DNA from: Escherichia coli
GTDB taxonomy: Bacteria; Pseudomonadota; Gammaproteobacteria; Enterobacterales; Enterobacteriaceae
Length of the DNA stretch: 64,000 nucleotides
Assembly (NCBI RefSeq): GCF_051903065.1
Contig: NZ_CP178438.1
Strand: one strand, 5' to 3'
The notes under the pieces: model-generated
What the model saw: the letters and a program-made list of their open reading frames with translations, nothing else
Told to the model about the DNA's origin: nothing
Database searches by the model: none
Shown here: positions 55,135 to 57,083 of the stretch, in pieces
How positions within the stretch are numbered: the first letter of the stretch is position 1
Layout: the number at the start of each line of letters is the position of its first letter
Translations under genes and position numbers: made by a program

Positions 55135-56975
<1,841 letters not shown>

Positions 56976-57003
56976 ATCCTTTTCAGCCGCGTATTGGCTT
57001 GTT

Positions 57004-57019
57004 TGCAAAGCGGATGCCA
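57004..57019 (-). promoter_or_regulatory. Sigma-54 (-24/-12) promoter of the rut operon
   Basis: Minus strand reads TGGCAT-CCGCT-TTGCA (GG-N10-GC spacing), about 30 nt upstream of the rutA ATG at 56975. Confidence 0.8.
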
Positions 57020-57083
57020 GTTTTTAAAAAGTGAATGTTATTAATGTGTTAACATTGCGTTATCTAAAATATCTGGTAAAAAG

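Follow-up and report, generated by a model that had tools for sequence, protein, structure and literature searches.

The analysed window, a stretch of 64,000 nucleotides from Escherichia coli, contains the rutR-rutA intergenic region, in which the feature described here is located. Along the minus strand the gene order was putA, rutR (on the plus strand and divergent from rutA), the intergenic region, rutA, and rutB. Among 5,426 complete E. coli genomes, 5,421 matched the 600 bases around the feature, which are annotated there as parts of rutA and rutR. The longest open reading frame of rutA spanned 55827..57008 on the minus strand, opened at a TTG and encoded 393 amino acids. For comparison, rutA loci were taken from 80 species-representative Enterobacterales genomes, and 79 of them were usable.

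Upstream of rutA, a sigma-54 type -24/-12 promoter element (rutAp, CTGGCATCCGCTTTGCA) was located at 57004..57020 on the minus strand on the basis of its motif, a ChIP-seq site, a SELEX peak, and its conservation. Read on the minus strand from 57019 to 57004, the sequence TGGCAT-CCGCT-TTGCA (TGGCATCCGCTTTGCA) contains the GG and GC doublets of sigma-54 promoters, separated by one helical turn, and is directed at rutA, lying 29 nt 5' of an ATG at 56975 and 86 nt 5' of an ATG at 56918. The preliminary description of this DNA had reported TGGCAT-N5-TTGCA on this strand at 57005-57019; the motif is there as described, and the interval was one base short of the actual 57004-57019. As a bare pattern the element was not significant. 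TGGCAY-N5-TTGCW occurred once in the window versus 0.34 expected occurrences, and at least once in 30 of 100 shuffles, while a looser sigma-54 consensus with two mismatches produced 13 matches versus 16.3 expected, i.e., no enrichment. What sets rutAp apart from a chance match is its position, its orientation, its conservation, and the published ChIP-seq and genomic SELEX binding at this place. Specifically, a TGGCA-N-TTGC element was present 5' of rutA in 78 of the 79 Enterobacterales loci, and it formed the block of highest information in the promoter-anchored comparison (mean of 1.39 bits vs 0.44 overall). The same 17-mer as CTGGCATCCGCTTTGCA is the intergenic sigma-54 ChIP-seq site OS10 5' of rutA in Bonocora et al. 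2015 (PMC4591121), and genomic SELEX with the RpoN holoenzyme gave a peak within the rutA/rutR spacer (PMC8743547). According to the 2015 ChIP-seq paper, the rutA promoter had the status 'predicted', not experimentally confirmed, in EcoCyc (PMC4591121). The rut/RutR literature describes a sigma-54 promoter, NtrC control and a single RutR box for the rut operon, and according to these papers rutA has been reported to be no longer induced when rpoN or ntrC is mutated.

The element is the known rutAp, the sigma-54/NtrC promoter of the rutABCDEFG pyrimidine-utilization operon, which has already been described. The 17-mer, the intergenic region, and the regulators (sigma-54, NtrC, and RutR) are identical to those of the rut/RutR literature and EcoCyc (operon of b1012), and no difference was found between that promoter and the one in the window. 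The promoter itself is an established control region and adds nothing new; conservation, ChIP-seq, SELEX and the literature all agree with the preliminary description, which had proposed a sigma-54 promoter and NtrC-regulated expression of rut.

Further upstream, the pattern TGCAY-N7-GYGCA identified two NtrC-like enhancer sites on the minus strand. The first, TGCACTCTCATCGCGCA, occupies 57127..57143, with its centre near -142 relative to the predicted start of transcription; the second, TGCATGTTTTATGTGCA, occupies 57106..57122, with its centre near -121. Both putative sites (57143-57127 and 57122-57106) fall within the interval of about 57100-57180 in which the preliminary description had advised looking for NtrC enhancers. 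The pattern had two matches in the window, namely these adjacent sites, versus 1.46 expected. In 28 loci, nearly all of them from Enterobacteriaceae, as well as in the window, the strict NtrC-like pattern had its centre between -141 and -143, and five Pantoea loci had a similar site at about -130/-131. At the level of sequence only, rutAp would possess the upstream enhancer sites expected of a sigma-54 promoter. A RutR box, TTGACCGTTTAGTCCA, was identified at 57084..57099 on the minus strand (centre at about -98) with 3 mismatches to TTGACCANNTGGTCAA. All 79 sequences analysed carried a RutR-like box, whose spacing to the promoter was almost constant in most of them, and RutR has been published to bind the rutA-rutR fragment. 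In the interval between the RutR box and the promoter lies a conserved A/T-rich block, GTTAACACATTAATAACA, at 57036..57053 on the minus strand, which was recognized by a few high-information columns between -55 and -33 of the ungapped promoter-anchored comparison and could also be seen in the raw sequences. For this block we infer only a candidate role as a DNA-bending (IHF-type) site. In the ungapped promoter-anchored footprint, shifts of 1-10 nt between families blur the enhancer, RutR, and leader blocks beyond scoring, and these were scored instead by a gapped alignment (A1) and by position-tolerant searches.

The archetypal NtrC-activated sigma-54 promoter is glnAp2. On the one hand, rutAp shares with it a TGGCA-N7-TGCA core and a pair of NtrC-type sites located more than 100 bp upstream of the start. 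On the other hand, a box for a TetR-family repressor (RutR) sits between the enhancer and the promoter of rutA, and the NtrC half-sites of rutAp (TGCAC...GCGCA and TGCAT...GTGCA) match more weakly.

This arrangement also bears on the reading that the -24/-12 element arose by chance or binds sigma-54 unproductively and that rutA is transcribed from another promoter. The expectation of 0.34 occurrences per window speaks for such a reading, as does the fact that most of the 135 sigma-54 sites of the ChIP-seq study are intragenic (PMC4591121); likewise, the literature that we found contains no mapped transcription start for rutA. Nevertheless, the element is retained in 78 of 79 loci at a fixed spacing to the enhancer-like and RutR sites, a search of 56700-57400 for a sigma-70-like promoter detected none, and the literature has NtrC-dependent expression from a sigma-54 promoter. 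We consider this reading extremely unlikely and retain rutAp as the promoter of rutA.

The start of transcription is predicted at 56993 on the minus strand (+/-2 nt) by the rule of the 2015 ChIP-seq study, which puts the predicted rutA start 19 bp 3' of the centre of the motif; this is 18 nt ahead of the K-12 start codon annotated at that time (PMC4591121). The available part of a Cappable-seq supplement lists no 5' end near the predicted coordinate, and rutA does not appear in the accessible portions of the text and supplement of the NtrC ChIP-seq paper, nor in the ROSE paper. The TTG that opens the 393-aa frame (57006..57008, minus strand) is the TTG of the -12 TTGCA, so the observation in the preliminary description that the longest frame begins inside the promoter was correct. 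This TTG was rejected as a start because it belongs to the -12 element, precedes the predicted 5' end of the transcript by about 15 nt, and has no Shine-Dalgarno sequence (duplex of -1.5 kcal/mol). Rejecting TTG 57008 does not lead to ATG 56975, however. A third candidate, which the preliminary description had overlooked, follows in the sequence GAGAGG-TTG-ATG-ATG-AAA, with ATG codons at 56921 and 56918.

The codon at 56975 (56973..56975, minus strand) is the start used in the K-12 record and is probably not the main start. It is in frame, stands directly after AAGGAT and gives a protein of 382 aa, all as the preliminary description had it. The curated K-12 MG1655 record (NP_415532.3) has a RutA of 382 aa with a start equivalent to 56975, and the UniProt entry of RutA also carries the 19 extra N-terminal residues. 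The coding sequence from the conserved start at ATG 56918 spans 55827..56918 on the minus strand and encodes MKIGVF... in 363 aa plus a stop; its assignment is based on PGAP, TIGR03612, and conservation. The two codons differ in their ribosome-binding sites. Ahead of 56918, the Shine-Dalgarno sequence AAGAGAGGU (56924..56932, minus strand) is the best anti-Shine-Dalgarno match of the leader at -8.6 kcal/mol; its pairing ends 5 nt before the ATG, and 6 nt separate GAGG from the ATG. The AAGGA ahead of 56975 reaches -5.4 kcal/mol, and its pairing ends 1 nt from the ATG. The usual Shine-Dalgarno spacing in E. coli is about 5-9 nt. Across the comparison set, the start MK[IV]GVF was found at the homologous ATG in all 79 loci, and [GA]AGG preceded it by 5-8 nt in 78 of them (by 6 nt in 52).

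Protein family models and automatic annotation gave the same placement. The RutA equivalog model TIGR03612 scored 726.9 bits versus a cutoff of 498.3 in a full-length model match, and its position 1 corresponded to residue 31 of the 393-aa frame, i.e., the Met at ATG 56918, which leaves the 382-aa start outside the model. In six non-K-12 RefSeq strains (the strain with an exact match and five others), PGAP annotates 'pyrimidine utilization protein A' with 363 aa from 56918, and 56940-56995 carries no annotation. On this basis the RutA start would be ATG 56918, 57 bases downstream of 56975, and the start that yields 382 aa is probably incorrect, even if the curated K-12 choice may rest on further evidence. 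The discrepancy is one of annotation: the K-12 RutA carries 19 N-terminal residues that the comparison places in the 5' leader, and PGAP and the family model are shorter. All three lengths occur among the RutA structures in the PDB, with 363 aa in 6SGG, 6SGM, 6SGN, and 6TEE, 364 aa in 6SGL, 6TEF, and 6TEG, and 382 aa in 5WAN. Binding of substrate analogues and of O2 has been described for the short forms (PMC7662398). Because RutA of 363 and 364 aa crystallises with ligands bound, the extension is dispensable for folding. The choice of start affects the numbering of residues (5WAN versus 6SGG/6SGL), the design of constructs, and the interpretation of the rutA leader.

The first ATG of the ATGATG pair, at 56921, would give a protein of 364 aa beginning with MMKIGVF. 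This codon is in frame with GAGG 3 nt upstream, it is inseparable from 56918 by the E. coli sequence alone, and a construct of this length is in the PDB (6SGL). Against it, the position is not conserved: it is an ATG in only 2 of the 79 other loci and mostly GTG, CAC, GAG, or GCG, the last three of which are not start codons, and in three loci an out-of-frame TAA straddles it. Furthermore, its 3-nt Shine-Dalgarno spacing is worse than the 6 nt of 56918, the codon that PGAP and TIGR03612 use. Initiation at 56921 in E. coli appears quite unlikely to us, and ATG 56918 remains the preferred start.

We then considered the 19 codons from 56975 to 56919 as coding or non-coding sequence. An in-frame stop was found no more than 18 codons 5' of the MKIGVF ATG in 39 of the 79 loci, in 35 of them within 10 codons, and only 19 of the 79 had an in-frame ATG at least 5 codons upstream on the predicted transcript. 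The rutA gene of one divergent Escherichia lineage, at 7.8% nucleotide divergence, showed 78 synonymous versus 7 nonsynonymous changes in its body. In the same lineage the 19-codon stretch showed 1 synonymous versus 4 nonsynonymous changes, including one from CGA to TGA; this contrast with the body (Fisher's exact p=6e-4) comes from one divergent lineage and has limited power. Exactly this leader with its TGA occurred in 15 complete RefSeq genomes that carry the label E. coli, and rutA was annotated in all of them. The conserved core of the leader, GC(A/G)GGA(T/A/C)GC, stood in all three frames relative to the rutA ATG (30, 16, and 12 loci) at a steady distance of about 45-49 nt from the -24/-12 element. 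Within E. coli, the 57 nt of the extension were better conserved than the gene body, differing at 0-2 positions versus 14-30 per 1,092 nt. The open frame in most E. coli carries little weight, because chance alone would leave a frame of 19 codons open in about 40% of cases, (61/64)^19. As a protein-coding extension, the stretch lacked a frame kept open and in register in relatives, an excess of synonymous changes, and a suitable Shine-Dalgarno distance, the three properties by which it was judged. The comparative evidence says that the 19 codons are not maintained as coding sequence and would belong to the 5' leader. That they are open and conserved in E. coli would be due to a conserved nucleotide element in the leader and not to protein coding.

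These results weigh on two further readings of the start. In the first, RutA is translated from ATG 56975 by way of the AAGGA ribosome-binding site after a leader of 18 nt, and the 382-aa protein has a genuine N-terminal extension of 19 residues. This is the start of the K-12 record; the predicted transcript includes it, 18 nt from the transcription start. Its frame stays open in the large majority of E. coli genomes, and the 382-aa protein has been crystallised (5WAN). However, its Shine-Dalgarno pairing ends too close to the codon, and the extension, which stop codons close in 39 of the 79 species as well as in the 15 E. coli genomes, evolves as non-coding sequence and is absent from the RutA family model. 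The proposal in the preliminary description that ATG 56975 is the likely start was not upheld: the Shine-Dalgarno sequence is 1 nt away, the extension is non-coding in relatives, and the conserved and well-spaced start is 56918. We regard this reading as very unlikely. In the second, E. coli initiates mostly at 56918/56921 and to a minor degree at 56975, which would yield a little 382-aa isoform that is lineage-specific and has no required function. Both ATGs are in frame on the predicted transcript in most E. coli, and the long form folds, as 5WAN attests. On the other side, the long form has no positive in vivo evidence, its Shine-Dalgarno spacing is poor, and dual initiation is impossible in the 15 E. 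coli genomes with the TGA; likewise, a search of the literature for a native N-terminal peptide of RutA found none. Dual initiation is therefore also a reading that we hold to be unlikely, and we return to initiation at ATG 56918.

Taken as a whole, a joint account of the known sigma-54 promoter, a leader of about 75 nt, and a main start at 56918 seems likely to us. According to this account, sigma-54 RNA polymerase occupies CTGGCATCCGCTTTGCA at 57020-57004, and NtrC at the enhancer-like sites at about -142 and -121 would activate rutAp under nitrogen limitation, with the RutR box at about -98 placed between enhancer and promoter. Transcription would begin near 56993, the exact position being one that we infer, so that TTG 57008 would be off the transcript. 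The leader of about 75 nt would be followed by translation at ATG 56918 via AAGAGAGGU, at near-optimal spacing, to give a RutA of 363 aa. ATG 56975 and the 19 codons that follow it would form part of the leader, and the use of 56918 in E. coli may be exclusive.

The leader contains a conserved block with two GGA motifs at 56946..56989 on the minus strand, approximately +5 to +48 of the predicted transcript, which was delimited by the gapped alignment, by column counts, and by its likeness to csrB. Its near-invariant core, GCAGGATGCA, spans 56973-56964; the first GGA occupies 56979-56977. When 39 distinct leaders were aligned, they showed a near-invariant GCAGGA-N-GCA, with U at the variable N in 24 leaders, A in 10, C in 4, and G in 1. 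The other GGA precedes the core by 3-11 nt (3 nt in E. coli), and both are flanked by GC-rich sequence. On the 3' side of the block comes a stretch variable in length and sequence, followed by the invariant Shine-Dalgarno sequence and ATG. Within the first 48 nt of the leader, exactly two GGA were counted in 43 of 56 leaders and three in 10 of 56, and the heptamer CAGGA[UCA]G was present in 51 of the 56. The block occupies a single place per genome in E. coli, and no paralogues of it were found there.

Two other interpretations of the block were tried and rejected. A structured RNA, i.e., a riboswitch or attenuator, was discarded: an Rfam search of the leader gave no match at E<=10, RNAalifold on the leaders returned a consensus of only 2 invariant pairs, without a covarying fold, and the E. 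coli leader, with a minimum free energy of -12.5 kcal/mol, folded no better than shuffles (z=+1.28). An outer stem proposed by eye was paired in 84% of cases with one compensatory pair, which is weak. A conserved upstream mini-ORF (AAGGA-N8-AUG at 56968, encoding MQRPV*) was rejected as well. Its AUG is out of frame, and the single base of the core that varies is the U of this AUG; the core occurs without that AUG in 18 of the 56 leaders, and the frames differ widely in length and end point.

We also observed that the GCAGGA(U/A/C)GCA block of the rutA 5' leader appears to resemble CsrA-binding sites. The K-12 gene csrB, which specifies the CsrA-sequestering sRNA CsrB, contains 9 copies of CAGGA[U/C/A]G (6 with U, 2 with A, and 1 with C), and the core of the rutA leader has the same heptamer in the same three variants.

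A tentative possibility, doubtful at present, is that the first 45 nt or so of the leader act as a CsrA/RsmA-type post-transcriptional element with two GGA, the second of them presented as GC-AGGAN-GC. The leader has the composition expected of CsrA-bound leaders, with at least two GGA motifs and one of these, of the form A(N)GGA, displayed by a short hairpin loop. The core can fold into such a mini-hairpin, its loop holding the GGA; the GC/GC pairs that close it do not vary, and hence there is no covariation in its support. Nonetheless, the leader differs from classic CsrA repression, since the E. coli Shine-Dalgarno sequence GAGAGG does not contain GGA and is about 45 nt downstream of the GGA block. 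Other modes of CsrA action, such as 5'-end protection and effects on Rho, need no site over the Shine-Dalgarno sequence. Our search of the CsrA/RsmA literature found no link to rutA, and rutA is not in the CsrA CLIP/omics supplementary tables of PMC5694010, which are uninformative on this point because rut is silent in those nitrogen-replete conditions.

We consider the GGA-containing leader block a modest new lead on the post-transcriptional control of rut. If the possibility holds, the scavenging of nitrogen from pyrimidines would be tied to the Csr carbon/stationary-phase circuit, for example by 5'-end protection or by access to the Shine-Dalgarno sequence. It would also explain that a stretch which the K-12 record treats as coding shows conservation at nucleotide level in shifting frames among Enterobacteriaceae, Erwiniaceae, and Serratia, and the clean deletions in several lineages. 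Such short-leader lineages include Enterobacter hormaechei, Enterobacter cloacae, Buttiauxella, and Dryocola, in which the promoter is 56-61 nt from the ATG and the block is absent, and in which the enhancer and RutR spacing are retained.

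The annotated length of RutA differs between sources, and the conflict concerns its start (window 56916-56975). The reference record of strain K-12 (L002, NC_000913.3 1072863-1074011) gives a protein of 382 aa, whereas PGAP annotation of other E. coli genomes and the TIGR03612 model give 363 aa. Forms of 382, 364 and 363 aa are all represented in the PDB, so residue numbering is offset by 18 or 19 between RutA structures. Within the supposed N-terminal extension, an in-frame TGA was found in the divergent locus L003 (1980-1982) and in 15 RefSeq genomes (H59-H73). This lineage is labelled E. 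coli, shows a rutA nucleotide divergence of 7.8% and was isolated mostly from pigs, and also from human, cat and dog. Apart from the TGA, its promoter, Shine-Dalgarno sequence and rutA are intact.

The 5' leader of rutA carries a conserved block on the minus strand that spans 56946-56989, has its core at 56964-56973 and contains two GGA motifs. The core, GCAGGA(U/A/C)GCA, is almost invariant in the rutA leaders of Enterobacteriaceae, Erwiniaceae and Serratia, and its frame relative to rutA shifts between these loci. The core shares a heptamer with the CsrB repeats, a likeness in sequence; the block matches no Rfam family and shows no convincing covariation. An out-of-frame mini-ORF, AUG CAG CGC CCC GUC UGA (MQRPV*), lies at 56951-56968 on the minus strand with AAGGA 8 nt upstream, and its five-codon version was found again in 16 of the 56 leaders. 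Because 18 of the 56 carry the core without the mini-ORF AUG, the mini-ORF is probably not what has been conserved.

Upstream of the rutA start, the 45-nt block is cleanly missing from Enterobacter hormaechei, Enterobacter cloacae, Buttiauxella and Dryocola loci (L021, L022, L024, L025, L039-L041, L045, L046 and L053). There the -24/-12 element stands just 56-61 nt from the rutA ATG, and the spacing from the NtrC and RutR sites to the promoter is unaltered. In the 130 nt upstream of rutA, Buttiauxella gaviniae and B. massiliensis (L036, L038) have in common an unrelated insert, GGCAGCAAGGCGGCAA...GCTGCGGCTTGAAGGATGATGGG, in the interval from promoter to rutA. L038 has its sigma-54 motif pushed out to -127; in L036 none was detected in the 140 nt upstream of rutA.

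The interval from the RutR box to the -24 element holds the A/T-rich block GTTAACACATTAATAACA (57036-57053, minus strand), a few positions of which are kept across families even when compared without gaps. This block is a candidate for IHF binding or DNA bending in enhancer looping. Elsewhere in the window, TTGACCATTTTGTCCA (28149-28164, plus strand) fits the RutR box consensus with two mismatches, closer than the rutA-rutR box (three mismatches). Chance matches are anticipated at that mismatch level, with four found versus 2.7 expected.

In E. coli KFu015 (L087, NZ_CP147130.1), an IS1 element at 1788-2500 lies between the sigma-54 promoter and rutA. Its insertion point corresponds approximately to window position 56973, eliminating the ATG at 56975 and cutting rutA off from its promoter. 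Despite this, rutA-rutD are still intact and annotated; the rut operon may be silenced, or may be expressed from an IS-derived promoter.
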